A stretch of 64,000 nucleotides of DNA from Nitrososphaerota archaeon (GTDB taxonomy: Archaea; Thermoproteota; Nitrososphaeria; Nitrososphaerales; Gagatemarchaeaceae): positions 134,723-198,722 of the forward strand of contig JAPCJH010000002.1 of assembly GCA_027887045.1 (NCBI GenBank). The letters run 5' to 3'. Below, one piece after another: positions 1,994 to 59,766 of this stretch; position 1 is the first letter of the stretch, and every line of letters starts with the position of its first letter. Position numbers and translations under genes: made by a program. Below the pieces are notes generated by a model, which ran no database searches, was not told the origin of the DNA, and saw only the letters and a list, made by a program, of their open reading frames with translations.

Positions 1994-2035
1994 ACCTAAA
2001 ATGCGCAGGAACCATTTCAAATCCATGGAGCTGTT

Positions 2036-2593
2036 TTGTTTAATAATTCGAGCGGGCTCCTCGACGATGGTGCGATGTTGCAAGAGAGGAGATATCGGAC
2101 CAAAGCTGTTGGGCGCTCACCAAGTCCAACTTCTAAAGCGGTCTCCGCTTCCATGACATCTAACAAAGCAAGAGGAACGGGGCCTGAACTCGTTCTGGCT
2201 AAGCTGCTTCGGAAGAAGATAGTCGACAATAGCCTACCGGGGCGCCCTGATTTCGTCTATTCCAAAGCCAGGGTTGCAGTTTTCATCCACGGCTGCTGGT
2301 GGCACGGCTGCTCTGAACATTACAGGTCGCCAAAGACCCATCCTGCGTTCTGGAGGAGAAAACTCGAGAGGAACCGAGAGCGAGACAGACTTGACAGAAC
2401 GGCGCTCGAGTCGATGGGGTGGAAGGTGCTGGAGGTCTGGGAGCACGAGGTGAAGCGCGACCCAAGGGCGGTCGCCGCCAGTATTCAACTTCTTTCTGCA
2501 TCTCGCTCCGCCTCCCTCCAGGTGCGACGGACGGCCAGCCCGAATGAGCAGGAAGTATCTACGCGTTCAAAATTAGCTCGGCTGGAACCTTGA
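2036..2593 (+). CDS. vsr: Very-short-patch-repair endonuclease (T/G mismatch-specific)
   Basis: FVYSKARVAVFIHGCWWHGCSEHYRSPKTHPAFWRRKLERNRERDRLDRTALESMGWKVLEVWEHEV matches the conserved Vsr core (FVDGCFWHGC...W..K...N..RD). The 3' end converges on and overlaps dcm. Confidence 0.85.
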   Translation: MFNNSSGLLDDGAMLQERRYRTKAVGRSPSPTSKAVSASMTSNKARGTGPELVLAKLLRKKIVDNSLPGRPDFVYSKARVAVFIHGCWWHGCSEHYRSPKTHPAFWRRKLERNRERDRLDRTALESMGWKVLEVWEHEVKRDPRAVAASIQLLSASRSASLQVRRTASPNEQEVSTRSKLARLEP

Positions 2594-3668
2594 TATCTTC
2601 TTCCACGAGGATGGCTCTGGCAACAGCGGCCGACAAAATCACAGGGACTGAATTGCCGACCAGCTTGTACTTCGTTGTGAGCGTCTTGGCTGGGAACCTG
2701 TAGGTCACGGGGTAGCACTGCAGTGAGGCACACTCTCTCACGGTGGGCTTCCTGTACCGCGTCCTGCCCCTGTAGATGGTCTCGATTACCATCGTCTCCC
2801 TCGACGCGTTGAACTGCGTCGCCATGACGGTCCTCGCAGGCCTGTCGAGGTAGTCGGGGAATAGCATCTTGCCATAATATGCGTGGGCCACCTTTTGTTG
2901 CTTGTTCCTCGCGGCCTCCCTCGTCGTCATCAGGCCGTCTTCAGGTCTCTTGTACAGCGGCGGAGCAAAGAAGTGGTCTTCAAGCTGCTTTTCCTTGATG
3001 GTAATCGGGTAGTTGGGGTCGCTCACAGTCTCTCGTTCGTTCATCCTGCCCAACGGGTCCGGGAACGCTCCGATGACCTTCCTCATCGGAACCCACGGCT
3101 GGTAGAGGACATTGTCCAGCGTGAGCATCGACTCCTCGAAGTGCGTTTGGACGGGACTAGGGTATCTTCCCGAAAGTAGCCTGAGCCGCTTTTGCGGCGC
3201 GCCGAAGTTAGCCGAATTGAAGACCTCCTGCCTCGGGACGTCGAAAAAGCCGTCCTCCGGAACTCCCATGTCCTGCAACCTGACCCTATGGGGCAGAGTC
3301 TGCAACAGCCTTGGGACGTTCTCCATTATCCAGTACTTGGGTCTCAGGACGTGGACGAACCTGAAGAAGGCCAAGACGAGCCTCATACCTTTCTGGAAGT
3401 CGCCGCCGCCTCCCCTCTTTGAGCCGGAGAACTCCGTGCAGGGAGGGCCCCCTATCAGCACGTCGGGCCTAGAGTCCAGGAAAAGCTTGGGGTCGAGAGT
3501 CTCTATGTCGGCCTTCATCGTTTGGGCCTCCGGCTGGTTGAGCTTGTGGGCCTCGATGGCGGGGTTCCAGTTGTCTATCGCGTACGTCACGTCGAACCCC
3601 ACCTGCCTGAAGCCTTCCGAGAACCCGCCCGCGCCGCAGAAGAGGTCGATTACTGTTAGTCGTCTCAA
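2559..3668 (-). CDS. dcm: DNA (cytosine-5)-methyltransferase
   Basis: Motif I VIDLFCGAGGFSEGF. PC motif GGPPCTEFSGS. ENV motif MENVPRL. A C-terminal target-recognition region follows. 369 aa. Confidence 0.9.
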   Translation of the reverse strand: MRRLTVIDLFCGAGGFSEGFRQVGFDVTYAIDNWNPAIEAHKLNQPEAQTMKADIETLDPKLFLDSRPDVLIGGPPCTEFSGSKRGGGGDFQKGMRLVLAFFRFVHVLRPKYWIMENVPRLLQTLPHRVRLQDMGVPEDGFFDVPRQEVFNSANFGAPQKRLRLLSGRYPSPVQTHFEESMLTLDNVLYQPWVPMRKVIGAFPDPLGRMNERETVSDPNYPITIKEKQLEDHFFAPPLYKRPEDGLMTTREAARNKQQKVAHAYYGKMLFPDYLDRPARTVMATQFNASRETMVIETIYRGRTRYRKPTVRECASLQCYPVTYRFPAKTLTTKYKLVGNSVPVILSAAVARAILVEEDIKVPAELILNA

Positions 3669-3766
3669 CGGTGACTCGAGCCCCCTTCCTCGATATTTAA
3701 GTGCCTACGAAAACCCCCGCTGTATGCGGCCGATTCTGAGGACCTCACAAAGAAATCCTGCGGGCT

Positions 3767-4654
3767 CTAGCTCATTCCGTCGAGCCACGGTCTGCAGATT
3801 AGCTTAGCCTCGGTCACTGTGGCAGGTGAGACCCCAATCTTCGAAAGCGGGTATAGTACTTTCGAGAACCGGACATCTCCAGTCAACACTCCTAGCACCC
3901 TCAGGTGGGTCAGAAGGTTGTTCGACCCGCGGCGGAAATGTTTGGGTGACGCGTCTCCTAGAGGGCCGAGGTACTTGCAGTCCTCGTTCCAGGCCAGTAT
4001 CTGGTTATAGTAGAGGAACGCCTCCAACGTAGCGCCGCTGATGACCTTGTAGATTCGCCCTAATGCCGCCAGCGCTTCGGCCGGCGGATTGTACCTCCAG
4101 AACGGATGAAGAGTCTCGGTCGCGCGTAAAGCCGGGTGCGAAGCAAGACCGAATCCCTCCGTCTCGGTCTGGAGCATGATGTCCTCGTCGTCTCTGTGGA
4201 AGTCGATGAAATGGGCCATCCTGAATATGAGCGTGCCGAGGGCTCGCGGCGCCCACGGCCCATACACGCCTGCCGCGCACTCCTGGAGAGCATCCCAGAC
4301 GTCGGCGAAGCTCTGGTCCTCAAGCCAGCTGCCGTTGGCGTCCATGAGCTTAGGCCTGAAGTCGAGTTCCTTCTTTTTTGCTTCGGGTAACTCTGACTCC
4401 TTTCCAGGGTATTGGAGGAAGACGCGCTCGCCGCCCTTCGTCTCTCGCAGGAGGATTCGCTTCTCCTCGACCCCGTTACGCAGCCCATCTCGCCTAAGTC
4501 CTCGAATCCATTCCACGTTCTCCAGCCGCCGCCGAAACACGGACTCGTTTTCAGGAGCCTGAACTACTCTGAGCACGTCGAGGGATGAAGGTGCTCCCCC
4601 CTCGGTCAGGCTCATCACTTCGGAGCAGGTGCCTGAGCGTATTAAGCTCTGCAC
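3767..4654 (-). CDS. Hypothetical protein immediately upstream of dcm in the same orientation; candidate restriction endonuclease or specificity partner
   Basis: 295-aa ORF that ends 98 nt before the dcm start on the same strand. I recognise no motif in it. The role is inferred only from operon context with the C5-MTase. Confidence 0.35.
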   Translation of the reverse strand: MQSLIRSGTCSEVMSLTEGGAPSSLDVLRVVQAPENESVFRRRLENVEWIRGLRRDGLRNGVEEKRILLRETKGGERVFLQYPGKESELPEAKKKELDFRPKLMDANGSWLEDQSFADVWDALQECAAGVYGPWAPRALGTLIFRMAHFIDFHRDDEDIMLQTETEGFGLASHPALRATETLHPFWRYNPPAEALAALGRIYKVISGATLEAFLYYNQILAWNEDCKYLGPLGDASPKHFRRGSNNLLTHLRVLGVLTGDVRFSKVLYPLSKIGVSPATVTEAKLICRPWLDGMS

Positions 4655-4681
4655 CCGCTTTGATTAAGAGAAGGTAGGTGG

Positions 4682-4900
4682 CTACGGCGCTGGTCCGACG
4701 ACTACTAACTTGCGTCTAACGTCAATCTTAACTTCGACAACCTCCCCGGCGCTGAAGGGGAACTGCGAGTCCTTCGCAACCTCGGTAGGGACGTAGACGA
4801 AAAACTTGTCGTACTTCTTGCCTCCAGTTGTGGTAGGTCTATTGACGAACTTGCCTCGTCCCTTAGTAGCCAAATTTGGTGTCACAGGCTTATAACACAT
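4682..4900 (-). CDS. AbrB/MazE-like (swapped-hairpin) small DNA-binding protein, putative
   Basis: Internal Met start MCYKPVTPNLATKGRGKFVNRPTTTGGKKYDKFFVYVPTEVAKDSQFPFSAGEVVEVKIDVRRKLVVVGPAP. A basic N-tail is followed by a V-x-V-P...GE-V-V-x-I-D pattern typical of AbrB/MazE/SpoVT domains. The longer 107-aa form would run antisense through the neighbouring gene. Confidence 0.4.
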   Translation of the reverse strand: MCYKPVTPNLATKGRGKFVNRPTTTGGKKYDKFFVYVPTEVAKDSQFPFSAGEVVEVKIDVRRKLVVVGPAP

Positions 4901-5831
4901 GGTAAGGCTATTTCCGAGCACCAAATTGGTGTCACAGGAGACTGCGGTCAGCCACGCAATTATTGCCTTGGTCGTCCTTGTTCTCGTCGCAGGTACGGCG
5001 GGCATAGTCTACTACTTCAACGGAGGAAGCTTTCTGAACCTGAACCCAGGAGTAGCAAACAACGGCATCGCTGTCGAATCTGCGCAACTTCAGGATTATG
5101 GTCGCCTGGTCGTGAGCTTGAGCAACAACGGGCATAGCACAACGAAGACTATTCAACCCCTACAGGCTTGTTCACCTGACTACTCTTACTGTGAGAGTCT
5201 TAACGCAATCCCTAGCACATTCGTTCTTCCTCCCGGGAGTATGGTTGTCGTGAATCTAACGATATCACAATGTGCCTTCCTTTCCAACACCTTTCCTTGT
5301 TGGGGAGCCCCAGTCAATGGGTACACTTACTACTTCAAAATCGAATTGACCTTCGCCGGCGGCAACTCGGTTGACTTGCCCATCGCGGCCCACGCGTCCG
5401 GCGGGTTCCCCCTATGCAGCACCTGCTTGGGTTTTTCGCTTCCTACACAGTACAGCAGAACCATTTCCATAATGAAGGTCAGCACGTCGACTATTGGCCT
5501 CTTTTCGAATCTCACCGGACGGATGACTGTTGGACTGACGTTTGACCACTCGATTCCTGATTCCGTTACAGCCGCCTTGTTTGACGAGACGAGTGGCAAT
5601 CAGGCTAACCAAAGCCCTCTGGTATCCTCCACCAAGGGCTCTTCCACCTGTGGAACGAGCGCTGCGGGGCTCCCGTTAAATTGCGATTGCATAAACTGCT
5701 CGCCTTCCGCAACCTTCCTAGCAACTTTCTCTACTGTAACGACCGGCATTTCGTCTGGGCATTACTACATGCTGCGTGTTAGCATTCCAAGTTACGGCAA
5801 TTACTTCCTCTGGCTACAGACTCAGGGATAA
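4899..5831 (+). CDS. Secreted/cell-surface protein with N-terminal hydrophobic pilin-like segment, Ser/Thr/Cys-rich
   Basis: 310 aa. N-terminus ...AVSHAIIALVVLVLVAGTAGIVYYF is a TM/class-III-signal-like helix. The rest is Ser/Thr/Gly/Cys-rich with no recognised enzyme motif. The start is uncertain because its ATG overlaps the CAT of the divergent gene as CATG. Confidence 0.4.
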   Translation: MVRLFPSTKLVSQETAVSHAIIALVVLVLVAGTAGIVYYFNGGSFLNLNPGVANNGIAVESAQLQDYGRLVVSLSNNGHSTTKTIQPLQACSPDYSYCESLNAIPSTFVLPPGSMVVVNLTISQCAFLSNTFPCWGAPVNGYTYYFKIELTFAGGNSVDLPIAAHASGGFPLCSTCLGFSLPTQYSRTISIMKVSTSTIGLFSNLTGRMTVGLTFDHSIPDSVTAALFDETSGNQANQSPLVSSTKGSSTCGTSAAGLPLNCDCINCSPSATFLATFSTVTTGISSGHYYMLRVSIPSYGNYFLWLQTQG

Positions 5832-5910
5832 ATTATCAGGGCTTACCTTAGGCCTATGGCGAAAAGCCTGCGACCGTCCTAAATGTTCCCAGCCCGCGCC
5901 TTCACTTGCA

Positions 5911-6111
5911 ATGGCAGAAAAGAGCGAAGCCAACAAAAAGACCAAGCCACCGACACCAAAGCTGGTCGAGGCTGTGTTCACATGGAATGGCCTCGTCAAT
6001 CCAGGAAAGAGAAAGAGAGAGAATCCCGAGTTCCCCTTCAAGACAGGGGACAAGCTGCTAGTGAAGCTGGTCGGCGACACTCTGATAGTCTCGAAGGCTG
6101 ATTCCAAGTAA
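5911..6111 (+). CDS. AbrB/MazE-like small protein, paralog of 4682..4900
   Basis: MAEKSEANKKTKPPTPKLVEAVFTWNGLVNPGKRKRENPEFPFKTGDKLLVKLVGDTLIVSKADSK. It shares the FPF-x-x-G-(D/E)...V-K-(L/I) core with the 4682..4900 product. It is read from an internal ATG of the 5776 ORF. Confidence 0.4.
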   Translation: MAEKSEANKKTKPPTPKLVEAVFTWNGLVNPGKRKRENPEFPFKTGDKLLVKLVGDTLIVSKADSK

Positions 6112-6120
6112 GACGAGAAG

Positions 6121-6148
6121 GAGGAAAACGCCTCCTCCCCCCTTTTTT
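6121..6148. terminator. Bidirectional hairpin + T-tract terminator between convergent genes
   Basis: GGAGGaaaacgCCTCC stem-loop followed by cccccTTTTTT. It lies between the stops of 5911..6111(+) and 6152..6538(-). Confidence 0.5.
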
Positions 6149-6151
6149 GAC

Positions 6152-6538
6152 TTATTTTACATGAGCAACACAGGCCAGTTCAAATCGATTGTGCGCCTTG
6201 CATTGAATGAACCTGATTTTCTTCAGCCTCTTTAGTTCCGCAAGGTCCTCCAACTCCTTACCACAGCGACAACACTCAACAGCGTCATCTTCCTTCTGGA
6301 GTCCTAACCATTCATGTTCATTGCAAGATATGCAAAACGATCCAACAGGCAGGAGAATCTGGTCATCCCAGTCGGGGTATTCTTTGATGATTTTGGGAGA
6401 ATTGGTCTCATCCAAATGGACCCACCGCTTGGTAGGAAAGCCGATTTGGGCACCTCTCAGCCTGATGTATAACGTATTTGCTGGGCCTCCCAAGTTCTTA
6501 CATTTAGGATTCCCACATCGGTACCTGACGCGACCCAC
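6152..6538 (-). CDS. Hypothetical Cys-rich (multi zinc-ribbon) protein
   Basis: 128 aa with CxxC pairs (CGNPKC, CISC, CCRC, C..C..H). No enzymatic motif. Confidence 0.45.
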   Translation of the reverse strand: MGRVRYRCGNPKCKNLGGPANTLYIRLRGAQIGFPTKRWVHLDETNSPKIIKEYPDWDDQILLPVGSFCISCNEHEWLGLQKEDDAVECCRCGKELEDLAELKRLKKIRFIQCKAHNRFELACVAHVK

Positions 6539-6615
6539 AAATGGCCTTCGAAATTAGGTACTAAAAAACAGTGTAGTCACCATCACGTAATCATGGAAAA
6601 GTATCAGGTCCGGGC

Positions 6616-6954
6616 GTGCCTGCAAAGATGGAAAAACGCCGAACAAACAAACCTGCGGCTGTAGGCACAGCCGACACGGGCAGCATTGAGGCTACGCTCA
6701 GAGAGGCTGAGAGATTCCCGATTGACGAGGAATACCGGCACCTCCATAACAATCATGTCGGACACGAGGTCTGGCATTTCACCGGAAAGCGGCATGACCC
6801 TGATGGAACGGTAGTCAGGGATGGAATTCTAGTTCAAAGCTGCCTGACTTGCCGAACCGTCATCGCGATGATTCCTCTTGGTATGAGGGAATGGATGGCC
6901 CTAGATGCGGTCTTGGCAGAGGAAGAACTGGAGAGGATGGGGTATCAGCCATGA
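6616..6954 (+). CDS. Hypothetical protein
   Basis: 112-aa ORF with a CxxC (CLTC). No recognised family. Confidence 0.35.
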   Translation: MPAKMEKRRTNKPAAVGTADTGSIEATLREAERFPIDEEYRHLHNNHVGHEVWHFTGKRHDPDGTVVRDGILVQSCLTCRTVIAMIPLGMREWMALDAVLAEEELERMGYQP

Positions 6955-7238
6955 GAAAACCATGCGACCACCCCGACGTAGCAAACCATCGTGATTGGAA
7001 GCCAATGGACCCGGATTATTGGCCCCAATGGACTCTCACTGAATGGGTCAGGTGGTACGTCACTCAAGCAATCAAAGACATAGGGAGGAAGGATCTAGGT
7101 CAGGCACGACGCCAGCTGAAGGAGCTCCTCCTGCGTATGGAGTTCCGTCGTTTCGACTCGCAATGGGAGCCAGATTGGGACTCGCTGATGAAAGCTGGCC
7201 GGGTTGATTGGGAGCCTGAGTGGGATGGACACTTTTGA
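6951..7238 (+). CDS. Hypothetical Trp/Asp-rich protein
   Basis: ATG overlaps the upstream stop (ATGA). MRKPCDHPDVANHRDWKPMDPDYWPQW...WEPDWDSLMKAGRVDWEPEWDGHF. Confidence 0.3.
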   Translation: MRKPCDHPDVANHRDWKPMDPDYWPQWTLTEWVRWYVTQAIKDIGRKDLGQARRQLKELLLRMEFRRFDSQWEPDWDSLMKAGRVDWEPEWDGHF

Positions 7239-7433
7239 TAGAAAAAAAGGCCGGACCTGAGAATCTCCCTACAGGAGCAGAAACCCATCGGATTCTGAAC
7301 CTCTTCGTCCTACAAGGTGCATTGGAAACGGATGGCAAGAACAGATTCCGTTTATCGAGGCTGGCTCAAGAGACATTACTTGCAAAGGTAGAGAAACTAG
7401 CCTAACATCCCTTCCCACTCCAAGGAGGGCCAA

Positions 7434-7586
7434 TCGATGATGGAAAGAGCCGTCATCGAAACTGTCCTAGATTTTGTTTCTCCCGGCGAGGAGTTTACCG
7501 TGGAGGAGATTCAGAAGAGATGCCGAGTCTTTGGTGCAGGTGTCGAGATGATGCTCGATGACCTTTGGAAGGACATCCTACGGTGA
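7434..7586 (+). CDS. Small unlisted ORF (50 aa), possible winged-helix-like protein
   Basis: aggaggg sits 7 nt upstream of ATGATG. MMERAVIETVLDFVSPGEEFTVEEIQKRCRVFGAGVEMMLDDLWKDILR. It falls below the 60-aa cutoff of the ORF track. Confidence 0.2.
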   Translation, partial: SMMERAVIETVLDFVSPGEEFTVEEIQKRCRVFGAGVEMMLDDLWKDILR

Positions 7587-7919
7587 CAGCTTTGAATGAG
7601 GATGAGCTGGGACGACCGCGAGTCACACGCATTCCTCTTGGGCGAATGACGAATGCAGGCACGTGACATCCAAGACTGCAGCGACAATACCCAAAGGTGA
7701 ATATGGTGGTGTGAGGTTAAGAAAGTAGACGACGAGAAACACCCCGAAATAACCTAGCATGCCGAGTCCGAATCCGACGTTGTAACGTCGCTCGAACCTT
7801 CTTCTTTGTTTACTCAGGCGAAGGAATTCCTTGTCAAAGGGGTCTTCAGACCCAGGCAAACCCCGCGGAACATAGAACGCCAACGATGGCGATATTGGCA
7901 GAAGTCTCTTAAGAACCCT

Positions 7920-8150
7920 CTAGGAGAAGAGTCTCTTCAGCCCGACGTACAACACGCGCAAGATGGTCGTAGCCATCGCAGCCACCAGCAGACTTCCAAT
8001 CAATCCCCACTCGGCAAGGAACGCAAAACTCCCCGCTGTCGGTGTGTAAGGAAAGCCAGTGAAAGAATTGGGGTAGGAGGCATCGTAGAGCACAGCGGCA
8101 TAAAAGAGGACAAACAGAACGATGAAGAGCGCCAGCCACTTGTGCCTCAT
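7920..8150 (-). CDS. Small membrane protein (two TM helices), hypothetical
   Basis: MRHKWLALFIVLFVLFYAAVLYDASYPNSFTGFPYTPTAGSFAFLAEWGLIGSLLVAAMATTILRVLYVGLKRLFS is strongly hydrophobic. Confidence 0.25.
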   Translation of the reverse strand: MRHKWLALFIVLFVLFYAAVLYDASYPNSFTGFPYTPTAGSFAFLAEWGLIGSLLVAAMATTILRVLYVGLKRLFS

Positions 8151-8210
8151 GCCTTTGTTGTCTGACGCCTGTTATTTATCGTCGAACCCTCACCCTCTTT
8201 TTCAGTCAGG

Positions 8211-8510
8211 TCAAACTTTCGTGCCACTCTCGTAGCCATCTCGCCCATACTTACGTTGTCTCTCTTTCCAAGGAACTAATTGGTGAGAGAGCCAATGAGA
8301 GACCTTTGTTCTATCAGCTGAACTGACCCGATGGTATTTCAGATAATCTCTCGCATCATTGACCTTGCCGAATTGTTTCTCCACGCCGCCCCTTGGGTCA
8401 GACACATAGATGCGAACTTTGTCTCCATATTCATTTGGCGCGACCCAGACTTGGAACTCGTCATTTCCATGCGTTACCATCAAGCTGTCGTCCAATTTGC
8501 GAACACCCAC
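8211..8510 (-). CDS. Hypothetical protein
   Basis: 99-aa ORF with no recognised motif, inside the putative mobile element. Confidence 0.3.
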   Translation of the reverse strand: MGVRKLDDSLMVTHGNDEFQVWVAPNEYGDKVRIYVSDPRGGVEKQFGKVNDARDYLKYHRVSSADRTKVSHWLSHQLVPWKERQRKYGRDGYESGTKV

Positions 8511-8555
8511 CCTCCCCGATAAGCCTAGAACCTAGATATCCTTTGACCTCCTAGC

Positions 8556-8894
8556 TTGAACCTGAATAAATCGCAGACACATACTTCTTTATATGGTTGT
8601 AGCATGCTAGCTAGAAAGCGTATGAAGAGATTCGTGACGCAAAAGTTCTCGGATGAGGAATGGAAGAAATTGAAGGCAGCTATGGGTACGAGAACATGGC
8701 CTGAGTTTGTACTGGGAAGGAAGCCTAGCAGTGAACGTCCGCGCCCTGTCCATTCAAACGCTCTTGGGAAGACCAAGGTGAGGAGAACGATGATTACGCT
8801 GGAGCAGGAAGAGTTCGACATTGTTCTGAAGCGGAAAAGGACTATGACGTGGCATGAGTACATCATGTCACTCGCGGAGAGGAAGAAGAGATGA
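8556..8894 (+). CDS. Hypothetical basic protein
   Basis: 112 aa, Lys/Arg-rich. No motif recognised. Confidence 0.3.
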   Translation: MNLNKSQTHTSLYGCSMLARKRMKRFVTQKFSDEEWKKLKAAMGTRTWPEFVLGRKPSSERPRPVHSNALGKTKVRRTMITLEQEEFDIVLKRKRTMTWHEYIMSLAERKKR

Positions 8895-9006
8895 GATTGG
8901 TCGCAACCCGCCACGAACACCGCCCAGCTGATGGAGCTAGAACGTTACACGCTGCTACGGACGTTGCGACCCGTGACGCTCCCAGAATGATTCAAGGAGT
9001 TCGTCA

Positions 9007-9432
9007 TTGACTACGCCGCCAACAACAAATAAGTCTAACGGACATGTGCATGGTTGGATTCCTGTTGCCGCGTGGGGCACCCAGGATAAGTCGTACAAGA
9101 CCTTCAATTGCGAATGCAGCACAGAGAAGGTTGAGGTCTGGAGTAATGGCAAGCTCAAGAGAACAAACGTCAGTATCGGACATCGTGCTGTTCTTCCAGT
9201 AAGAGATTCACGAGGTCACAAACTGACGTGGGAGAACCTAGTTGTCAGGAAGTTCTACTTGAACAAGCCCGTGTTGCATCGGTATGAGCTCTATGAGGAC
9301 TTTGAGCCTGCACGCCTAGATACCATGATTGACGAGTTCTGGTGCCCGCGTTGTTCAGTTGCTGTTGAAAGAAAAATGAAGGTTCCTCACGAAGACGACC
9401 GAAAGTTTGAGGGTGAGGCGAGACTTCCATGA
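9007..9432 (+). CDS. Zinc-ribbon hypothetical protein, translationally coupled to downstream rep-like gene
   Basis: CECSTEK...CPRCS Cys pairs. Its stop overlaps the ATG of 9429 (ATGA). Confidence 0.4.
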   Translation: MTTPPTTNKSNGHVHGWIPVAAWGTQDKSYKTFNCECSTEKVEVWSNGKLKRTNVSIGHRAVLPVRDSRGHKLTWENLVVRKFYLNKPVLHRYELYEDFEPARLDTMIDEFWCPRCSVAVERKMKVPHEDDRKFEGEARLP

Positions 9433-10877
9433 AGCAAGCGAAGAAAGAGAAGGCCAAAACGCTCAAGATTCCAAAGGTGAAAGTTGTTCCTTCTACAAAA
9501 GTTCACAGTCTGACATTTCCAGACCAGAGAATCTATCTTGAGTCGGTCAAGCTAGACGGGCAACCAGCCTTCCTTCACAAAGACGGTCTAACTGGTAGGC
9601 TCGATTTCATGAAAGAGTTCGTGTATGATGGCATCACATATGCTCCAGCGGAGCCGTTGGGATACCTGCCGTGCGAATTCGATTCAAAGAAAGATGAGGT
9701 CAACAAACCAATCAAACTCGACGTGGTGACAAAGTTGATTTTGAACGAGTGGAAGACCTTTGTTGCCTGCGACGATACTTGGAGAATCCTAAACACGGCC
9801 TACACCGTTCTGACGTACTTGGTTTCCAAATCAATGACGACACCTTACTTGGCATACTTTGGTGACACAGAAACTGGGAAAGGTCAGAGAAAGACTTTAC
9901 ACAGGCAGATGTCATATCGAGCAAATGCTGGCGTTCTAGCAACTGCCGCCAACATATTCATCTACTCAGAGAACGTCAAAGGCACACTCATTCAAGATGA
10001 GTTCGAATCGGTAGAGAGAGATAGGGACCTTCAAGCTCTTTTCAAAGAAGGATACAAGCAGGGCGCTTCAGTGATGAGAATTCGAACCAACAGAGATGGG
10101 GTTCCGATTCAGCATGACTATCAGGTGTTCTCATGCAAGATTGTAGTCAGCAACTACGCGATTCGCAACAAAGCCGTACTAGAACGATTCATTGTCGAAC
10201 TTACGACCAAGGAGAAGCCGAAGAAAGATGAGTTTGACAGGTCCTCAGATCTAAAGAGATTTGCTGAAATTAGAAAGCAATTGATGACTTGGAGACTTCA
10301 GACTATTTGGAACAGTCTGCCTGACTTAGACATATCGTTCACGGGGCGAGCCAAAGAACTCTACAAGCCTCTCTTGCAAGCCGTGCATGGTACCAGTCTG
10401 TACGAGCCACTGTTGGAGTTTCTAACAACGCTAGAGGCCAAAGCGATAGAGGAGGCGAAGAGCAGTTTGACTGCTCTTGTCACGAAGGCCTGCGTGAAAC
10501 TTCGCGAGAAACAGTGTCCGACAGAAGAACTCAGAACAGTGCTGGCAGATTACATGAATGGAACAATTGTCATGAAGTCGGACGTTCCTTATGGCATACG
10601 CAGTAGTGAGTATGGAACGATTACTGACATGCAGATTGTCAATGAGATAAAATTGAACTTGGGAGGGAAGAAGGCGAGGCCATATGTGCATACATCTGAA
10701 GTGCTCCCGACATCAGGAGAAGTCAGGCAAGTTAGAGGATGGGACACTGATGCAACGCGCCTTCTCAACATGGTCAAGAAGTACCACTTGGAAGGAGACG
10801 CTGACATCGGCGAAGAACTGAAAGAACTTGAGTACTCCGTTGCTGTGAACCAAGAGGCTGTCAAAGGGTTCGGTTAG
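9429..10877 (+). CDS. Putative replication initiation protein (primase/helicase-like) of integrated element
   Basis: 482 aa. It has a degenerate P-loop-like YFGDTETGKGQRKT. It is the largest ORF of the element and is immediately followed by an iteron array, so the call rests on context. No confident family match. Confidence 0.4.
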   Translation: MKQAKKEKAKTLKIPKVKVVPSTKVHSLTFPDQRIYLESVKLDGQPAFLHKDGLTGRLDFMKEFVYDGITYAPAEPLGYLPCEFDSKKDEVNKPIKLDVVTKLILNEWKTFVACDDTWRILNTAYTVLTYLVSKSMTTPYLAYFGDTETGKGQRKTLHRQMSYRANAGVLATAANIFIYSENVKGTLIQDEFESVERDRDLQALFKEGYKQGASVMRIRTNRDGVPIQHDYQVFSCKIVVSNYAIRNKAVLERFIVELTTKEKPKKDEFDRSSDLKRFAEIRKQLMTWRLQTIWNSLPDLDISFTGRAKELYKPLLQAVHGTSLYEPLLEFLTTLEAKAIEEAKSSLTALVTKACVKLREKQCPTEELRTVLADYMNGTIVMKSDVPYGIRSSEYGTITDMQIVNEIKLNLGGKKARPYVHTSEVLPTSGEVRQVRGWDTDATRLLNMVKKYHLEGDADIGEELKELEYSVAVNQEAVKGFG

Positions 10878-11090
10878 GACGAGTACGGGTTCGGCTTTAG
10901 ACCGAGTACTGGTTCGTGGTGGAAGTACGACGAGTACGGGTCAAATCTTGGTACTCCCCTACTTTCACCATAAAGATGTGGGGGAATCATCTAGAAATGT
11001 CTTTCACTAATAGTCGTCTAAGGTATACTTCTCGTACTCCTCGTACTTAGGTAAGTACGGGTACAAGTACGGGTTCTAATTACTGTCAGT
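10878..11090. repeat. Iteron-like array of GAGTACGGGT/AAGTACGGGT repeats (direct and inverted)
   Basis: gacGAGTACGGGTtc (10878), accGAGTACtGGTtc, gaAGTACGacGAGTACGGGTca, the inverted ctcGTACTCctcGTACTta, and gtAAGTACGGGTacAAGTACGGGTtc (11050-11082). The array sits directly 3' of the rep-like gene. Confidence 0.5.
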
Positions 11091-11349
11091 CTCCGTTCCG
11101 AGGAAGGAGGGAGCCGAAACCTCTCGGACAACTCCGACTCTCTACTCTATAGAACGCCCCGTGCCTAAGTCACCGCAAGACCGTGAATCTGAGAGAAGAA
11201 ATCCAAAAATGTTCGGCCATGTAGCCTAAGTCATGGAATGGAATTGCGAAGACGAGCTTGGCGAGGATGTCAGCAACCTCTGGCACTACCACCGTGGTAC
11301 GTCTCGTAGAACTGAATTTGCCGCGCCTCTCAATGAACTTGGCGAAGAA

Positions 11350-11937
11350 CTAGCTGATGCGCTGTACGGGTACTGAGTCTGAGGTTTCCACCACGGATTT
11401 AGGCACCAGTTTCCTGATTAGAACCGCACCACCTTCGATGGTGAATGAAAGGGGCTCTTTCCTGGCAAAGGGCAGCTTGTCTCTTAGCTCGTACGGTGTG
11501 TGAATCAACCAAGAGCTGTCAATAATGTATTCTGAGGACCCCTTCTTGATTTCTAGCGTGTGGTCGTTGACGGTGAAGTCCAGCTTGTCACCTGGAGAGA
11601 AGGGCAGACGGTTTTGATACCTGTTGTAAACACGAACGCAGAAGTCGTGGGTGAGGATGGGATGGACGTTTGACACTCCTTTTCTGACGCACCTCATCAA
11701 CTCTGACTTAGCGGCAGAAACAGCTGCTGCTTCGACTGTTCTCATCCCTTTGCACGAATGACAAGGGAGGAGACCTGTGCCTCCAAAGTACACGCTCCCT
11801 GAGTCCTTGCAAGTGCCGCACTTTGCATGTATGTTGCGAAGTGGGTCCTTCCACTTGGGTACGTTGGAACCGTGCCAGAAGGGAGACGGCCGAGGGGCTT
11901 GACGCTCGAGTGCTGGCTTCGTGATTGATGCCCGCAA
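11350..11937 (-). CDS. Hypothetical Cys-rich protein
   Basis: 195 aa. CGTCKDSG...CHSCKG zinc-ribbon-like motifs. Unassigned C-terminal beta-rich region. Confidence 0.4.
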   Translation of the reverse strand: MRASITKPALERQAPRPSPFWHGSNVPKWKDPLRNIHAKCGTCKDSGSVYFGGTGLLPCHSCKGMRTVEAAAVSAAKSELMRCVRKGVSNVHPILTHDFCVRVYNRYQNRLPFSPGDKLDFTVNDHTLEIKKGSSEYIIDSSWLIHTPYELRDKLPFARKEPLSFTIEGGAVLIRKLVPKSVVETSDSVPVQRIS

Positions 11938-12340
11938 ACGCTTCCTTCAAAGTGACTAGGCAACTTAAGCTAGAGGGGCGCATATTGAAGTGGCAAGCCG
12001 AAGAGCGCGTGACGCGTAAGGCTGTCAGAGGAAGGAAGGTGGGTGGAGGCTCTAAGAGTGTCAAGCTGCCCTATTGACAGACCAAAGGCTATTTCGTGGT
12101 GCAAAAACACAAAATCTCACTACCGTATTTTCTTAAGCGACACCCGCCTCCTACTAAGGGTGCCGAGTAAAATCTCTGCGAGGGCTTGGGAGCACTCTCC
12201 ACAAGATAGTCTACGGGTGTATGATACTTCAAATACAAATGTGTAGTTTGTATGGTACCGTAGTTTTGTATTGCGTTTGCAAGCGCCCTACATTTCCCCC
12301 ACAATGTAGGGTATGTAAGGTGGTGAGAACGCTGAGTGAC

Positions 12341-13147
12341 TTAGCTGAACTTCATGTTGCGCAGTTGGGCTCTGGCCTCATCACCCGCTGACTCCTCCAT
12401 GTATCCTTCGATCTCTTTGGTAGAGGCATGGTGAGTGATGGTTCTGATTTGCGACGAGGTGTAGCCAAGCTTGCCTAGATACGTAATGGATGAGAACCTG
12501 AGAGAGTGAGTGTTGGTTCCAAGTTTCTCCCTAGAGAAGTTGATGTACCTAGAGGGTGACAGCTTTCCTCTCTTGAAGGCTTCCTGAAGATATGGCACGT
12601 CAGATTCTGGCAGGTCAGCGGGGATGTCTATGTCCCGCATCTCAACGTCAGCAGGGTCAGGGTCATAGTGCTGGCATGGGCAGTCCTTCACTAGGCAACG
12701 TCCTCGAGCACCAACGCCTACAACCTCGTGTCCTGACTTGACCCCAGTCTTAACGTGGTGACAATGAGCACAAACAGGCCTGTACTTTCTGACACGTACT
12801 TGATTCACGAAGTTCCTCTTGGGCGCGTATCCAACCCAGAGACGTAGACCGTCCAACGCCTCCTGAGCGCGGCAGAGATTCTGAAGCTGAATGAGAAGGG
12901 TCGAGGCCAAAGCCAGCATGGTAGGAGCGAAGGGAGACTTCCAATCGAACTCGTCAGGTGGAGCTTGACACTCCGTTCTGTACTTTGCCATTAGAGCAAC
13001 AATATTCTTTGCGGTCTCAACAAAGTCGAGCTTCTTGCCCCACCTGATTTTGCGGTGTTCTTTGATTCGTCTGAACTCTTTGCGTCTGTGGTCAATCTTT
13101 GGAGGCCTGTGATGAACTGTCAGTGCTGGCGCGGCAAGTTCACTCAT
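12341..13147 (-). CDS. Divergent tyrosine-recombinase-like protein with Cys/His-rich insertion
   Basis: C-terminus NTHSLRFSSITYLGKLGYTSSQIRTITHHASTKEIEGYMEE matches tyrosine recombinase box II (H-x-L-R ... H-x-x-x-x-x-Y). The middle carries CAHCHH...CLVKDCPCQH. Only 268 aa, which is short for an integrase. Confidence 0.5.
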   Translation of the reverse strand: MSELAAPALTVHHRPPKIDHRRKEFRRIKEHRKIRWGKKLDFVETAKNIVALMAKYRTECQAPPDEFDWKSPFAPTMLALASTLLIQLQNLCRAQEALDGLRLWVGYAPKRNFVNQVRVRKYRPVCAHCHHVKTGVKSGHEVVGVGARGRCLVKDCPCQHYDPDPADVEMRDIDIPADLPESDVPYLQEAFKRGKLSPSRYINFSREKLGTNTHSLRFSSITYLGKLGYTSSQIRTITHHASTKEIEGYMEESAGDEARAQLRNMKFS

Positions 13148-13341
13148 CTCGGCACCTTTGGAACGCGAACGATGTATGTGGGGTAGAATCTGTAGGTGTA
13201 GTATCTGTCAAGATTCGACTTCATGAACTCCAAGAGGTCTGACGGAACAAGAGCCTTTTGGATTCTGTGTCGTCTGCCAGTTTTGGTGACCCTCTCTTTC
13301 CACGGCAGGTGAAAGATTGCCTGCGGAGTCTCTTCGGACAA
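13144..13341 (-). CDS. Small hypothetical protein overlapping recombinase-like gene start (possible excision/DNA-binding accessory)
   Basis: 65-aa basic ORF whose stop overlaps the ATG of 12341..13147 by 4 nt. Confidence 0.3.
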   Translation of the reverse strand: MSEETPQAIFHLPWKERVTKTGRRHRIQKALVPSDLLEFMKSNLDRYYTYRFYPTYIVRVPKVPR

Positions 13342-13461
13342 ACTATCTTCGCTTAGTCAGGTTCCAAATATTCGTATGTAACAAAAAGGGTTCGTGGTAC
13401 GGTGCGGCCACGAAGAGCACTTTCCTGTCTGTAGCGGCCTACCTTTTCACTCAAGAACCCT

Positions 13462-13809
13462 CTAACTGTCCCAGTCGAATTGGACGCTTAGCTGTTCTGT
13501 CGTAAGGTCTGAACCTGCCGTACCCTTGGGCGGGTCTTCAATCTCGATTGGAGGCGACGCGAACTTCAGAATCTCAGCTTCTATCTCGTCTGGCTCGCCG
13601 AGGTGAATCAGGACATGCGGCTCGCGTTTGTCGACGTAATCGTCGCACAGAGTGGTCAACCTGACGACAGTCCAGTGCTTCAAACAGACTGGAATCCCTC
13701 CCTGAATCACGCGTTCGTGGTCGCATTCATCACAACGCGCGCCTGCAGCAATCGAGTCGGTGGGCTCTCTGTACCAGCGGTAATTTGGAGGCCTCCTTGG
13801 CTCACTCAC
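13462..13809 (-). CDS. Zinc-ribbon hypothetical protein
   Basis: CDECDH...CLKHW motif. 115 aa. Confidence 0.35.
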   Translation of the reverse strand: MSEPRRPPNYRWYREPTDSIAAGARCDECDHERVIQGGIPVCLKHWTVVRLTTLCDDYVDKREPHVLIHLGEPDEIEAEILKFASPPIEIEDPPKGTAGSDLTTEQLSVQFDWDS

Positions 13810-14142
13810 TCTCTCCCCACTTTATTCAACAAGTCGCCCGACCGTTTCCTAGTAGTCGCAGTTCTTGCATCTTCTCGGAGGAAGGAAGCTGCTTATGGCG
13901 ACGCTGTCACGGGCTGCCTCTAGGTCTACGAGCGAATCATCTTCCCGGCTTTCATCTTTGCTCATACACAACGAAGAGGAATCCCGACATATTAGCCCCA
14001 CCTACAAAGACAGCAGTAGGACAGGGAGAGAGTCAAGTGAATCTATGAACACTTCCTCACATTCACCCGCGACTCCCTCCGTCCCAAAAGGATGCCCAAA
14101 AAGACCGCTCCTCCTTTAGGCGAATTCTAACTAATTTGCCCG

Positions 14143-14510
14143 ATGAAGAAGACCTGCCCCCACTGCGGCCACATGGTCAGCGACGAATGGCACACGCGGT
14201 TCGGAATCGAGAGGCTCGACAGGGGCTGGGTGGAGGCCGGGATTCCGGTGGTCGGCAGAGTGAAGGTACATAGAGAGGCGCTGGCGATGGTGTACGTCTG
14301 CGAGTTGACGAACCTGCCTTTCCTCGTTGTGCTGCCTGGTGCGAAGTAACCCTCGCGGGAACGTCTCTCGAGGTCATCATCCCTAAGAGCTTCGCAGAGG
14401 CTTTAGGCATTCGGGACGGGGATGCTGTCAACTGGGACATAAAGACCTCAAAGGGAGCGAAAGTCTTGGTTCTGTCAAAGATAGCTGAGGAGCTCGGAAC
14501 AGCAATCTAG
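14143..14510 (+). pseudogene. Zinc-ribbon + AbrB-like domain ORF apparently split by a frameshift
   Basis: Frame 1 is MKKTCPHCGHMV...(68 aa, stop at 14349). The adjacent frame continues without ATG as ...TLAGTSLEVIIPKSFAEALGIRDGDAVNWDIKTSKGAKVLVLSKIAEELGTAI*. That is a clear AbrB/MazE-type swapped-hairpin sequence ending at 14510. Confidence 0.3.
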
Positions 14511-14515
14511 TGCCT

Positions 14516-15109
14516 TCAATTTGGTAGCTTGGCTTGACCACAACAGGGTTTGCCAGCGTCTTTGCTTTTCTTGTAAACCTCGTAGATGCCCCATAGTAAC
14601 AAAACTGCACCAATGGCGGCGAGGAGTTCACCCAAAAGGAAACCACGAAGTGTAGCTGCAAATGTTGCTGGAGACGCGCGCTTGAGAACTATGCACAAGT
14701 CAATGACACCTCCGAGTATCAGCGACCCAGCAACAGGTACCAAGAATGTGCCTCGCTCGGATGACAAAAGCTTCTTGTGGGGCCACCCACTTTTCTTGAC
14801 CTCTTCCTCGACCTTTTCGTCGAAGAAGCAGTGCAGCTTTGGAACTGTTTTATCCGCAGGCGAGACCTCATAGCGCAGCGCGGCACTTGATAGCCGCGCC
14901 CAAGCAATTGCCCGAAGCAAAGCGTAGACGGAAACCCCAATGGTGAGGCTCAACAAGGGATAAAGAATCAAAGGGTGTCCTCGAAAAGCAGAGAACTCAG
15001 GAATAGTGGCCGCAGCTAGTGCTAGGGAGGCTGTTGCAAGTTGATTCACGCTTGAACGGTAGGTCTCAAGAAGAGTCTTGCGAGAATCCTCTGTTGACCC
15101 GTTACTCAT
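14516..15109 (-). CDS. Hypothetical integral membrane protein
   Basis: 197 aa with 4-5 hydrophobic helices (ATIPEFSAFRGHPLILYPLLSLTIGVSVYALL...). Confidence 0.4.
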   Translation of the reverse strand: MSNGSTEDSRKTLLETYRSSVNQLATASLALAAATIPEFSAFRGHPLILYPLLSLTIGVSVYALLRAIAWARLSSAALRYEVSPADKTVPKLHCFFDEKVEEEVKKSGWPHKKLLSSERGTFLVPVAGSLILGGVIDLCIVLKRASPATFAATLRGFLLGELLAAIGAVLLLWGIYEVYKKSKDAGKPCCGQAKLPN

Positions 15110-15176
15110 TCAAGATTCTTCAGGGAGACCTTTACTTTAACGCTCTTGGGAAAACAAAAAGTGGAGAGGGCCGCGT

Positions 15177-16451
15177 TCAGGCCCTCTTCTTTGACTTAAG
15201 TGCTACGAGTTTGTCGAACTCGGCCAAGTCCTGTTCCGCTTGCACCTCAGCGCTTTGCTGTGCCAATTTCTCGGCAACGAGTTCATGCGCCAGTTCGTCC
15301 GCGACCTTTTCGGTGGGCTTTCCGAACTTCTCAGTGAAGTAGGCATCCCACTTTGTGATTGTGGCCTGTAGGTTCTTGTTCTCGGCCAGTACAGACTGGG
15401 TGTAGGTAGAGACCCGTGTCAACTCATTTTTCGTCTCACCTAGTTTCGCTGTTGCCGCCTCAAGCTTGGTCGTGTCTTGAAGGACTAGGAGTTGTGGCTC
15501 GCCTTTGTGGTACGCCTCAACATAGTCCTGTTGGGTGTACTGGTTATTGTAGACCCCGCCCATGTAGCCACGGTGCCCCGTCATCACCTCTACCATCTCA
15601 GGTGGGACGCGGAGCTTCATCTTCGAGGTGAAGTATTTTCTGAGAAGGTGAAGGTGGTAGGCTGACCTGCCTGTCCTCTTGTCCTTAACGTACAGACCAG
15701 CCTCGCGGATTACCTGTCCGAAGGCTTTGTTCGCCGAGTCATACGTGAAGGGGAAGACTTGGTCAGCGGTTGGAGGTCTTCTTGGTGTTGTCTGCTGCCG
15801 CTCCTTCCTCACCATGTTCTTGCCGCGCCTGAAGAGCCCGCTTGCGAGGTAGTGGTCTCTTACTTTCAGCCACTCGTTGAGCGCCTCAACAGCTTCAGAG
15901 CTCAGGAAGCTGAAGTACGAGTGGCCCTCCTTTGCGGTCTCTGCCCTTACCGACACCATAGGGGCGAACGGCTCCGAACTGCCTGACTCTGGCACCAGCT
16001 TCACGTCACTCAGCGTGAGTTGTAGGGCCTCGCCGACGCGGATACCTGAACTCTCTAGGAAGAGTATCAGTGCTTTCAGCTTGATGTCCCTTGAGTGCAG
16101 GAGGATTGCGCGGAGCTTTTCCCTAGTCAGTAGGCCGTCTTCGGTTTGAGCCTCGCCCATACCCTTCGGCATCATGCCACGGAGCGCTCGCCTGTCTTTG
16201 GTTCCTAGTTCGACGTCGCAGCAGTAGAGTAGGAACTCCTTAGCGGCAGTGAGATAGGCGTGTAGGGTCCACGGAGGCTTGGTGCCCCAGCTCTGGACGA
16301 ATTTGGCTAGGTCATCGAAGCCGTCACGCTTGCCAGCTTTGAAGTCGGCAATGTACCGAGCAGCCAGTTGTTCAAGTTGGGTGAGACCAGTCTTGCCACG
16401 CCCCAAGGTGATTCCGAAGACGCAGGCCAGGAACGCCTTCACACCGCACAT
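15177..16451 (-). CDS. Tyrosine-type site-specific integrase/recombinase (phage integrase family)
   Basis: Box I ...LESSGIRVGEALQLTLSDV. HxLR motif SAYHLHLLRKYFTS. Catalytic Tyr region MTGHRGYMGGVYNNQYTQQDY. The true start may be internal to the 424-aa ORF. Confidence 0.8.
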   Translation of the reverse strand: MCGVKAFLACVFGITLGRGKTGLTQLEQLAARYIADFKAGKRDGFDDLAKFVQSWGTKPPWTLHAYLTAAKEFLLYCCDVELGTKDRRALRGMMPKGMGEAQTEDGLLTREKLRAILLHSRDIKLKALILFLESSGIRVGEALQLTLSDVKLVPESGSSEPFAPMVSVRAETAKEGHSYFSFLSSEAVEALNEWLKVRDHYLASGLFRRGKNMVRKERQQTTPRRPPTADQVFPFTYDSANKAFGQVIREAGLYVKDKRTGRSAYHLHLLRKYFTSKMKLRVPPEMVEVMTGHRGYMGGVYNNQYTQQDYVEAYHKGEPQLLVLQDTTKLEAATAKLGETKNELTRVSTYTQSVLAENKNLQATITKWDAYFTEKFGKPTEKVADELAHELVAEKLAQQSAEVQAEQDLAEFDKLVALKSKKRA

Positions 16452-16841
16452 GTACGTATCCTGAGTGCTCGGTCTGGTCTTGTAGAGAGCGCGCCACTTA
16501 GCGAAGTCGTAGACGCGCTTGTCTCCCGTTATTCTCCCACCACCCTCACGTCAAGCGAGGCACTTAGGTCTTGCCGCTGTTGCTGGCGCGCCTGTTTGCT
16601 CTTTCCTGCCTCATCAGCGAACTTGATGACCCCGCCAGAACATGTCAGCCAAGGGATTCGTTCTTCTCGCACTGCATCCCACGGTGTTACTAAATTGCCG
16701 CAGGACCAGCGCATTTTTCTCGCAGTCGTCATACTTTCCGATTCTTGCATGATTCTGTAGGGAATTTGCAACATTTAATGAATTCTAAGCCAAATTAGCG
16801 GGCTTACCAAAGATTAAATCGGAAATCCCTGAGGGGAGAAC

Positions 16842-59727: not shown

Positions 59728-59766
59728 TCGACAATATTAAACCAACGAATTTTATTCGTTGTCTCG

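Follow-up and report, generated by a model that had tools for sequence, protein, structure and literature searches.

The 64-kb window considered here (the whole stretch of 64,000 nucleotides that was analysed) comes from contig JAPCJH010000002.1 of a metagenome-assembled genome (MAG) whose host is a member of the Nitrososphaerales (Thaumarchaeota). Positions ~430 or lower to 16806, immediately before the MTAP promoter, are read as a single mobile element, integrated and plasmid-like, with a length of at least 16.4 kb. It would be a thaumarchaeal cryptic integrated element (CIE), and we place the probability of this reading at roughly 0.72. The element is larger than first described, the original prediction having placed an integrated plasmid or provirus-like element at 6150-16500. 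Judging from sequence comparison, it belongs to a small, previously unnamed family of elements with a common set of parts. These are a replication-type protein (Rep) with its iterons, a tyrosine integrase of ~450 amino acids (aa) at the edge of the element with its own conserved promoter facing the junction, an internal zinc-ribbon recombinase, small zinc-ribbon or AbrB-like proteins (the AbrB likeness being weak and unconfirmed), and a variable cargo.

Nine loci from metagenomes or MAGs, amounting to about six distinct elements, carry parts of this backbone: Rep with co-varying iterons, the edge integrase, or the small recombinase. All of these parts, both recombinases included, recur in elements that lie beside different host genes. 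In L001, a contig of 63 kb, the element begins immediately behind the IMPDH gene. L002 to L004 are three contigs of ~17 kb from other samples that are 100% identical to L001 over the common stretch and begin 32-194 nucleotides (nt) past IMPDH. Judged by length, the far ends of two of these contigs would be no more than 4 nt apart, ~17.0 kb downstream, a pattern expected when assemblies break at polymorphic element ends. L005 holds the integrase, Rep and the small recombinase together, and L092 has the order Rep, iterons, integrase, host hydantoinase genes. In L086, a contig of IMG/VR, Rep is followed by the integrase at the contig end. L087 carries an integrase homolog of 62% identity. L088 contains an element of ~10 kb between host genes on a 76-kb contig, and the shorter contig L089 begins at the junction seen in L088. 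L090 was found through its small-recombinase homolog and has the integrase 88 nt from the contig end.

Insertion upstream of MTAP

For comparison, the surroundings of MTAP were taken from other genomes, 80 loci in all. Within the species-representative collection, the closest relatives are MAGs of the Nitrososphaerales, whose MTAP identity does not exceed 76%. Of the window open reading frames (ORFs), 27 were tested (1166-16451), and not one is present in these 80 loci. Upstream of MTAP the other genomes have a conserved gene order, each gene being found in 55 to 61 of the 80 loci, and none of these genes occurs anywhere in the 64-kb window. In the closest Nitrososphaerales relatives, a VOC/glyoxalase-like gene (~115 aa) lies directly upstream of MTAP; its stop codon falls a few bases before CAAAAGATTAAATC, and MTAP follows. 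DNA homology between the window and the relatives starts at 16807-16809, at the MTAP promoter motif AAAGATTAAAT and exactly at CCAAAGATTAAATC. Because homology begins only at 16807 and the upstream genes of the relatives are missing from the window, the DNA upstream of MTAP is an insertion relative to the other genomes. This bears out the mobile-element insertion originally proposed, and the window genes are not a syntenic core, as the upstream order of the relatives lacks them.

The right border can be placed between 16775 and 16807, and the attachment (att) site attR should lie in 16775-16806 or overlap the MTAP TATA box at 16807-16822. The empty site is seen in the relatives at the level of the order, not of the strain, the nearest being only 76% identical in MTAP. 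Evidence for it comes from relatives only, because the window holds no att direct repeat. The 70 nt at the end of the L087 contig are similar to window positions 16768-16825, including TTAGCAAACGTTAAAT compared with TTACCAAAGATTAAAT, and this likeness hints at the same kind of integration target.

Alternatively, the region may not be mobile at all, and may represent either a lineage-specific core region or a chimera of MAG assembly. The source contig is metagenome-assembled and no att repeats were found in the window, both of which would suit such an origin. However, synteny breaks exactly at the MTAP promoter, the integrase sits at the junction and is oriented as in six other elements, and the Rep, iteron and recombinase modules recur beside unrelated host genes. 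The contig is also reported as 580 kb in length. We regard a non-mobile origin as very improbable.

The composition and gene content of the region are in keeping with an integrated element. GC content is 0.47-0.52 over ~4.5-13.5 kb and 0.55-0.60 from 17 kb on, so that the AT-richer DNA noted at the outset is real when set against the flanks. Nearly all ORFs in 1-16.8 kb are without a match in Pfam, PHROGs, NCBIfam and PADLOC. Those that match a family are the integrase (PF00589), Vsr, Dcm, the truncated helicase at 1-300, and the 268-aa ORF (a PHROG integrase family). CxxC or CxxH pairs occur in about 8 of about 25 ORFs, and the short hypothetical ORFs with Cys/His pairs that were described earlier are indeed present, most of them orphans. 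An integrase is present and hallmark genes of viruses or of conjugation are absent (Pfam, PHROGs), which is the combination that marks a CIE.

It had also been pointed out that no tRNA flanks the element, and none lies nearer than 35 kb, the closest being at 35.3 kb (borderline) and 59.8 kb. At 35321-35377 (minus strand) there is a partial match to the Rfam tRNA model, with 29.2 bits compared with a gathering score of 29 and covering model positions 9-63, that ARAGORN does not call. Possible sources of this match are a fragment of a tRNA and a tRNA with an intron. A divergent pair of tRNA-Leu(GAG) and tRNA-Thr(CGT) at 59767-60014 is located inside a low-GC stretch at 57000-62000. This stretch and another at 28500-30000, both with a GC content of 0.50-0.52, could be other islands.

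The genes to the right of the element are housekeeping genes, starting with MTAP. Two paralogs of the MTAP family (Table 1) flank a 177-aa ORF that, read by eye, is presumably an APRT, and the second is followed by a 409-aa ORF that we take, also by eye, to be a SAH hydrolase. The arrangement MTAP, 177-aa ORF, MTAP-like gene, 409-aa ORF is conserved in relatives.

Replication module and the two recombinases

The Rep-like protein of the element has only 13 homologs in 5.8 billion proteins, all of them from metagenomes and MAGs. Identity is 58-60% in L001-L005, 40% in L092, and 29% in L086. In an alignment of 13 sequences, the Walker A motif GDxExGK and the DE of Walker B are invariant, and a motif-C-like KIVVSN is found in the closest homologs only. 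The zinc-ribbon protein encoded directly upstream has a counterpart at this place in L001-L004, with 24% identity (E = 2.5e-5). The AlphaFold2 (AF2) model of Rep ends in a winged helix. When this model is compared with viral models by Foldseek, the matches are mainly D5-like helicase-primases, VirE and DNA helicases, with E = 5e-4 to 1e-2 and an ATPase core modelled at a predicted local distance difference test (pLDDT) score below 50. No SF3 or D5 profile match was obtained in Pfam, PHROGs, NCBIfam, PADLOC or PDB sequences. The gene at 9429..10877 had been called rep-like, with primase-polymerase, D5 and RepA named as families to be searched; it does encode a conserved P-loop protein, but no link to D5, primase or RepA-type families emerges by sequence.

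The iteron array that was said to follow the large rep-like gene is well supported. Six AGTACGRG units fall within 10882-11073 (~190 nt), in both orientations and directly after the rep stop codon. The whole window contains 12 such units, a number that compares with 2.7 expected and that none of 100 shuffles reached. Arrays with an inverted layout also lie directly 3' of rep in L001/L003, L005 and L092, each with another core. These cores are AGTAC[TC]GG in L001 (11477-11663), which is common to L001 and L003, AGTACTAG in L005 (4748-4935), and AGTCGGAT in L092 (~1790-2010), as against AGTACGRG in the window (10875-11080). The position of the array is thus constant while its core changes along with Rep divergence, the pattern expected of a cognate initiator and iteron pair, to judge by these comparisons.

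A provirus with an integrase would be another way to account for the region, and the provirus-like character was part of the original prediction. One distant Rep homolog comes from an IMG/VR contig (L086), the neighbours of the Rep model in BFVD include proteins of the archaeal viruses TSPV1 and SSV7, and the many orphan ORFs could hide capsid proteins. On the other hand, no ORF matches a capsid, portal, terminase or packaging-ATPase family in Pfam or PHROGs. The 14 kb of L086 examined show only a helicase-nuclease, Rep and the integrase, with no visible virion genes, and a tblastn search with Rep gave no match in 50,697 phage records. With no hallmark gene found, the provirus was rejected, and we consider it hardly credible.

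The large integrase, of the int424 family, matches PF00589 with 39.6 bits compared with a cut-off of 27.1 (E = 6e-10) and the integrase families of PHROGs at 1e-13. Among 12 family members, R138, K174, H268, R271, H293 and Y314 are invariant and Y301 is nearly so. The catalytic region is followed by a conserved C-terminal extension of ~110 aa that is coiled-coil-like. Integrase homologs align with the window over 16532-15186 with no stop codons. In L005, L087, L089, L090, L092 and L086, the gene lies at the edge of the contig or of the element. A promoter-like motif, CATTAAAT(G/A)TT, lies ~25 nt before the start codon in members of the integrase family and is common to L005, L087, L088, L090 and L092. 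In the window it is found at ~16778-16790, where it opens a 73-codon orphan ORF, and the integrase homology is in a different frame from this promoter-served ORF. The claim of an intact integrase at the right edge therefore holds for the PF00589 match, the catalytic set and the position next to MTAP, but only conditionally for the start of the gene, where ATA stands in place of the ancestral start codon. On one reading, coupling allows the integrase to be translated from this weak start; on the other, the ATG has recently mutated to ATA and the element is freshly immobilised. A split integrase of the SSV type, suggested by the missing start codon, was also considered and rejected, as the promoter, the leader ORF and the full homology lie at one end; no integrase fragments are found elsewhere in the window.

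The second recombinase, rec268, has no Pfam match itself, and its match to PHROG 9208 (integrase, 1.6e-8) covers the C-terminal 50 residues. Its family comprises 54 representatives among 1.84 billion clusters (HMMER search). In an alignment of 20 sequences, R93, E96, K121, C129, R217 and Y249 never vary, C126 and H214 hardly do, and 3 of the 20 relatives match PF00589. A profile search of the PDB gave weak matches (E ~0.1) to Tn1549 Int, XerA and Cre. The AF2 model has a pLDDT of 86.8, and all of its named top Foldseek matches in the PDB are tyrosine recombinases, with a best E of 1.3e-3 and probabilities up to 1.0, although the TM-scores are low (0.3-0.4). Catalytic residues, fold and zinc ribbon all agree with the recombinase-like protein with a Cys/His insertion that was first described. 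Inverted repeats that might serve as a rec268 site or as inversion flanks were sought, and only chance-level pairs were found.

An integrase of the int424 family and a small recombinase occur together in the window, L005, L087, L088/L089 and L090. Because this pairing recurs in four other distinct elements, the two recombinases form one design and do not mark two elements, and the earlier suggestion that their presence signals elements in tandem loses its basis.

These parts can be combined in a proposed mechanism. The edge integrase would carry out recombination between an attP close to its promoter and an attB that lies at, or overlaps, the TATA region of MTAP, and it would also excise the element. 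After excision, Rep would bind the AGTACGRG iterons via its winged helix, open or unwind the origin, and allow the circle to replicate. The small zinc-ribbon recombinase would have a separate job, most likely resolution of episome multimers in an Xer/Cre-like manner or, less likely, inversion or alternative integration. The restriction-modification (R-M) module would stabilise or defend the element. Tentatively, we also put forward a joint claim. It holds that the zinc-ribbon proteins of 220-310 aa are an undescribed minimal class of tyrosine recombinase and the fixed second recombinase of new Nitrososphaerales integrative plasmids, with a task apart from integration (multimer resolution or gene-block inversion), and that the edge integrase targets the MTAP TATA region and is expressed via an ATA start coupled to the leader ORF. 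Taken as a whole, this claim is rather doubtful.

Left side, cargo and the probable unity of the element

The left limit of the element was first set at 6150, with a strong terminator as its border. A hairpin with a T-run does exist at 6115-6142, but it does not mark an element boundary, as the convergent gene pair around it is kept intact and adjacent in L087. Because backbone homologs lie on both sides and the pair is adjacent in L087, the hairpin is read as an internal terminator. In place of the limit at 6150, genes of the element extend at least to position 429, with R-M cargo in between (Table 1).

The gene order of L087 is integrase, 42-aa zinc ORF, AbrB-like ORF, 104-aa zinc ORF, further genes, and small recombinase. 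The window has homologs in the L087 order at 429-557(-) with 65% identity, 5776-6111(+) with ~50%, 6152-6538(-) with 27%, and 12341-13147; for the 42-aa, AbrB-like and zinc-ribbon ORFs, order and orientation are both retained. The 42-aa ORF corresponds to L087 1735-1854(-) and is 36% identical to its counterpart in L088/L089, and in L087 and L088/L089 these homologs stand directly beside the integrase. The C-terminal motif of the 111-aa protein resembles AbrB/SpoVT, a motif likeness only. For the small proteins generally, this assignment is unconfirmed, the best match being PF04014 at E = 0.12. The 5.2 kb at 557-5776, from the 73-aa ORF to the 310-aa ORF, would accordingly be cargo within the backbone. 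Because the homologs of the genes flanking it are adjacent in L087, with order and orientation kept, the R-M block is read as cargo and not as a border between elements. The 295-aa orphan of this block is read as a putative restriction endonuclease from its position. The 73-aa ORF adjoins an R-M gene both here (Vsr/Dcm) and in L001, where the neighbour is an N6_N4 methyltransferase with an Mrr_cat domain, and it may be a controller protein or a marker of cargo insertion.

Table 1. Positions of the features discussed, numbered from the first letter of the window.
Feature	Position	Strand	Observations
ResIII/DEAD (DinG/XPD-like) helicase, N-terminal 100 codons	1..300	-	runs off left end; PF04851 2.6e-9, PF00270 8.4e-7
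42-aa zinc-ribbon ORF (CPAC...CVGC)	429..557	-	leftmost element-type gene shown
73-aa ORF	615..836	+	common to the L001-type element; 65-67% identity to L001 20765-20971
275-aa orphan	1166..1993	+	treated as cargo; no match in Pfam, NCBIfam, PADLOC, PHROGs; absent from relatives
R-M cargo block	2036..4654		GC 0.56-0.59; Vsr, Dcm and 295-aa orphan
Vsr	2036-2593	+	TIGR00632, 106.7 bits (cut-off 97.85)
Dcm	2559-3668	-	TIGR00675, 128.5 bits (cut-off 100.65); PADLOC MTase_II 5e-54
295-aa orphan	3767-4654	-	no match in Pfam, PHROGs, NCBIfam, PADLOC
107-aa orphan	4682-5005	-	no family match; absent from relatives
310-aa Cys-rich orphan	4899-5831	+	no family match; absent from relatives
111-aa small protein, backbone gene	5776..6111	+	48-52% identity to L087 1967-2173; no Pfam match
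GC-rich hairpin with T-runs	6115..6142		between two convergent genes; internal terminator
128-aa zinc-ribbon protein, backbone gene	6152..6538	-	9 Cys; 27% identity (E = 6e-5) to L087 2214-2528(-), equivalent position
Eight small orphan ORFs, 49-129 aa	6616..8894		no family matches
141-aa zinc-ribbon protein	9007..9432	+	directly upstream of Rep gene, start/stop overlap
Rep-like P-loop NTPase, 482 aa	9429..10877	+	Walker A GDTETGKG, Walker B LIQDE, C-terminal winged helix
Iteron array, putative origin	10875..11080		AGTACGRG-type units, both orientations, spacer ~75 nt
195-aa protein	11350..11937	-	DnaJ-type CxxCxxxG zinc motif; weak AbrB/MazE-like repeats
Small tyrosine recombinase (rec268), 268 aa	12341..13147	-	zinc-ribbon insert after catalytic lysine
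65-aa ORF	13144-13341	-	
115-aa zinc-ribbon ORF	13462-13809	-	
68-aa zinc-ribbon ORF	14143-14349	+	56% identity to L005 12181-12297; weak PF13248 match
197-aa orphan, hydrophobic	14516..15109	-	no family matches; read as membrane protein from sequence only
Large tyrosine integrase (int424 family)	15177..16532	-	canonical ATG at 16451; homology in frame to ATA 16532-16530
Orphan ORF, 73-81 codons	16529..16774	-	between family promoter and integrase; TAA stop overlaps ATA (ATAA); no homolog in any locus
Right end of inserted DNA	16775..16806		integrase-family promoter motif (CATTAAATGTT, minus strand) and junction
MTAP-family paralogs	16842-17648 and 18242-18958		~35% identical to each other

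The 195-aa protein encoded between the iterons and rec268 is 29% identical to a protein of L001 and 24% identical to one of L005, at a matching position. It matches PHROG 4681 at 4.7e-4, and PF04014 (0.12) and Anti-TRAP (0.13) only weakly.

The true left end lies at ~300-430 or beyond the window. An end at ~300-430 would rejoin the 42-aa ORF and the integrase across a circular att junction, and in that case a separate island could, by analogy with L087 and L088, lie to the left. The truncated helicase at the left end of the window also has DinG-type matches in PADLOC. Its only metagenome relatives, with 62% identity, are on L093 and L094, contigs of GC 0.35-0.45, and no homolog occurs in any of the MTAP loci or related elements fetched. 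In L093/L094 (10001-15395) the helicase gene is followed immediately by a PAZ+Piwi (Argonaute-like) gene of 765 aa and by a second helicase gene. The gene at the left end of the window is probably not a core gene but defence DNA that moves horizontally, and a defence module of the prokaryotic Argonaute (pAgo) type may lie just left of the window.

Several observations weigh against a single integrated element that works as proposed. The GC content is heterogeneous, with the R-M block at 0.56-0.59. The left junction and the displaced VOC gene are absent from the window, and an element in one piece is not proven. With L087 as the reference, the integrase has a reversed orientation to the backbone, and rec268 is likewise reversed with respect to L001, L005 and L087: in the window its gene and rep lie on opposite strands, and they share a strand in L001 (13124-13915), L005 (7668-8504) and L087 (5138-5929). 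Given these inversions, the family is mosaic. Rep could be assigned to no known replication family by Pfam, PHROGs, NCBIfam, PADLOC, PDB sequences, PLSDB, INPHARED or hhalign, and its model is moderate overall, with a pLDDT of 69 that falls below 50 in the ATPase core. The integrase gene has no ATG, GTG or TTG upstream of 16451, and ATA occupies the ancestral start before a conserved YxFxxW motif; since a canonical start is missing at the conserved N-terminus, the element may be immobilised. The role given to rec268 is pure inference. Lastly, comparison of 16440-16835 with the rest of the window gave no att direct repeat, the best matches being of at most 11 nt and at chance level.

The scans for att sites covered direct repeats with a seed of 11, exact 9-mers of 16440-16835 against the whole window, and searches with the junction sequence and the TATA motif. 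Direct att repeats near 6.1 and 16.5 kb, which the original prediction would lead one to look for, are thus missing, as are flanking repeats (attL/attR) anywhere in the window, and the left end is probably outside it. The 7-nt sequence ACCAAAG is present at 354-360, between the helicase and the 42-aa zinc ORF, and at 16805-16811, where host homology begins. This pair is the only repeat at plausible element ends and is statistically at chance level. In L088, the relative that is fully flanked, no convincing att repeat was found either.

Some of these observations would also suit an integration hot spot upstream of MTAP that has gathered a composite or tandem island, made of two or more separately acquired pieces, at least part of which is decayed and has lost its mobility. 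Such an island could be split into a helicase (and perhaps pAgo) defence island on the left, the R-M block, and a Rep/integrase element on the right. GC content changes in steps along the region, from 0.48-0.51 (1-2.5 kb) through 0.56-0.59 (2-4.5 kb) to 0.47-0.52 (4.5-13.5 kb). The relatives of the helicase stand beside a pAgo-like gene in unrelated low-GC contigs and are absent from the related elements. The lack of att repeats in the window and of a canonical integrase start codon also fits, as does the circular form with a left end at ~300-430, in which the 42-aa ORF would again be near the integrase as in L087 and L088. Tandem arrays at one att site have been documented in Thaumarchaeota (PMC6563490). 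However, the genes that flank the R-M block, at 429-836 and 5776-6538, are matched by homologs in the same related elements; in L087 these homologs are adjacent, with order and orientation unchanged, and the recombinase pair is found in four other distinct elements. We therefore consider a composite island unlikely and favour one integrated element with an R-M cargo.

Significance and comparison with known systems

Thaumarchaeota are abundant in soil and peat, and very few of their plasmids or viruses are known. To our knowledge, no genetic tools exist for them. The element family could become a scaffold for shuttle vectors or integration tools in this group, its useful parts being Rep with its Rep-specific iterons, the edge integrase with a non-tRNA target, and the compact second recombinase. 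The small zinc-ribbon recombinase is the part of the element that we find most interesting, as proteins of this kind would widen the known structural range of tyrosine recombinases. For annotation, ~17 kb of the MAG can be marked as mobile, including an R-M system and possibly more defence genes leftward.

The closest known class is that of the thaumarchaeal CIE described by Krupovic et al. in 2019, which have a median size of 17 kb and carry R-M, Zn-ribbon and RHH genes (PMC6563490). An intergenic location was recorded for 15 of 68 published elements, and the shortest att sites measure 8 bp (PMC6563490). The element resembles them in its size of ~17 kb and in that the tyrosine integrase is the only widely shared gene. 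Further likenesses are the diverse replication proteins specific to mobile elements, the R-M cargo, the Zn-ribbon and small DNA-binding proteins, the predominance of orphans, and the possibility of a target other than a tRNA gene. It differs in its Rep, which is not among the published types, namely MCM, Cdc6/Orc1, primpol-S3H, Cch, SF2 helicase and rolling-circle replication (RCR) Rep (PMC6563490). A second, zinc-ribbon recombinase is conserved here. An att site was identified for 68 of 74 published elements (PMC6563490), in contrast to the present one, for which none was found.

The integrase is similar to the non-suicidal pNOB8 type in that its gene is whole when integrated and lies at the element edge (PMC8371274). 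It differs from that type in its target, which is not a tRNA gene, and in its C-terminal extension of ~110 aa. The split int gene that characterises suicidal integrases of the SSV type, whose att is internal to int, is not seen in the window.

The organisation of the replication module recalls P4, a satellite phage/plasmid of E. coli, whose alpha protein binds its repeats via a C-terminal winged-helix domain. In the P4 layout, which that of the element parallels, the gene of the replication helicase is directly followed by 8-bp repeats in both orientations, the crr octamers, and these by attP and the tyrosine integrase gene int (NC_001609 annotation). The two systems differ in that Rep has no detectable sequence homology to alpha, the hhalign comparison of the Rep alignment with P4 alpha giving a probability of 2.4% over the zinc motif only. 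Rep is also without a recognisable primase domain, and the host is archaeal. P4 is without a second recombinase, unlike the element in the window.

The small recombinase is most similar to recombinases of the Xer/Cre type (XerA, XerH, Cre), with which it has in common the catalytic set R, K, HxxR, H, Y. Its model is best matched by XerA, XerH, Cre, Tn1549 Int and an S. aureus integrase, and its gene lies inside the element near the replication module, not at the edge. An inverted-repeat search of the window found no dif- or lox-like site for it. The proteins of the rec268 family differ from the Xer/Cre type in their length of 220-310 aa, with almost no N-terminal core-binding domain, and in the zinc ribbon (CxxC...CxxxxCxC) that follows the catalytic lysine. 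A review of archaeal tyrosine recombinases nowhere uses the word "zinc" (PMC8371274). Relative to the published types, then, the Rep family and the zinc-ribbon recombinase are new, and the class to which the element belongs, that of the thaumarchaeal CIE, is already known.

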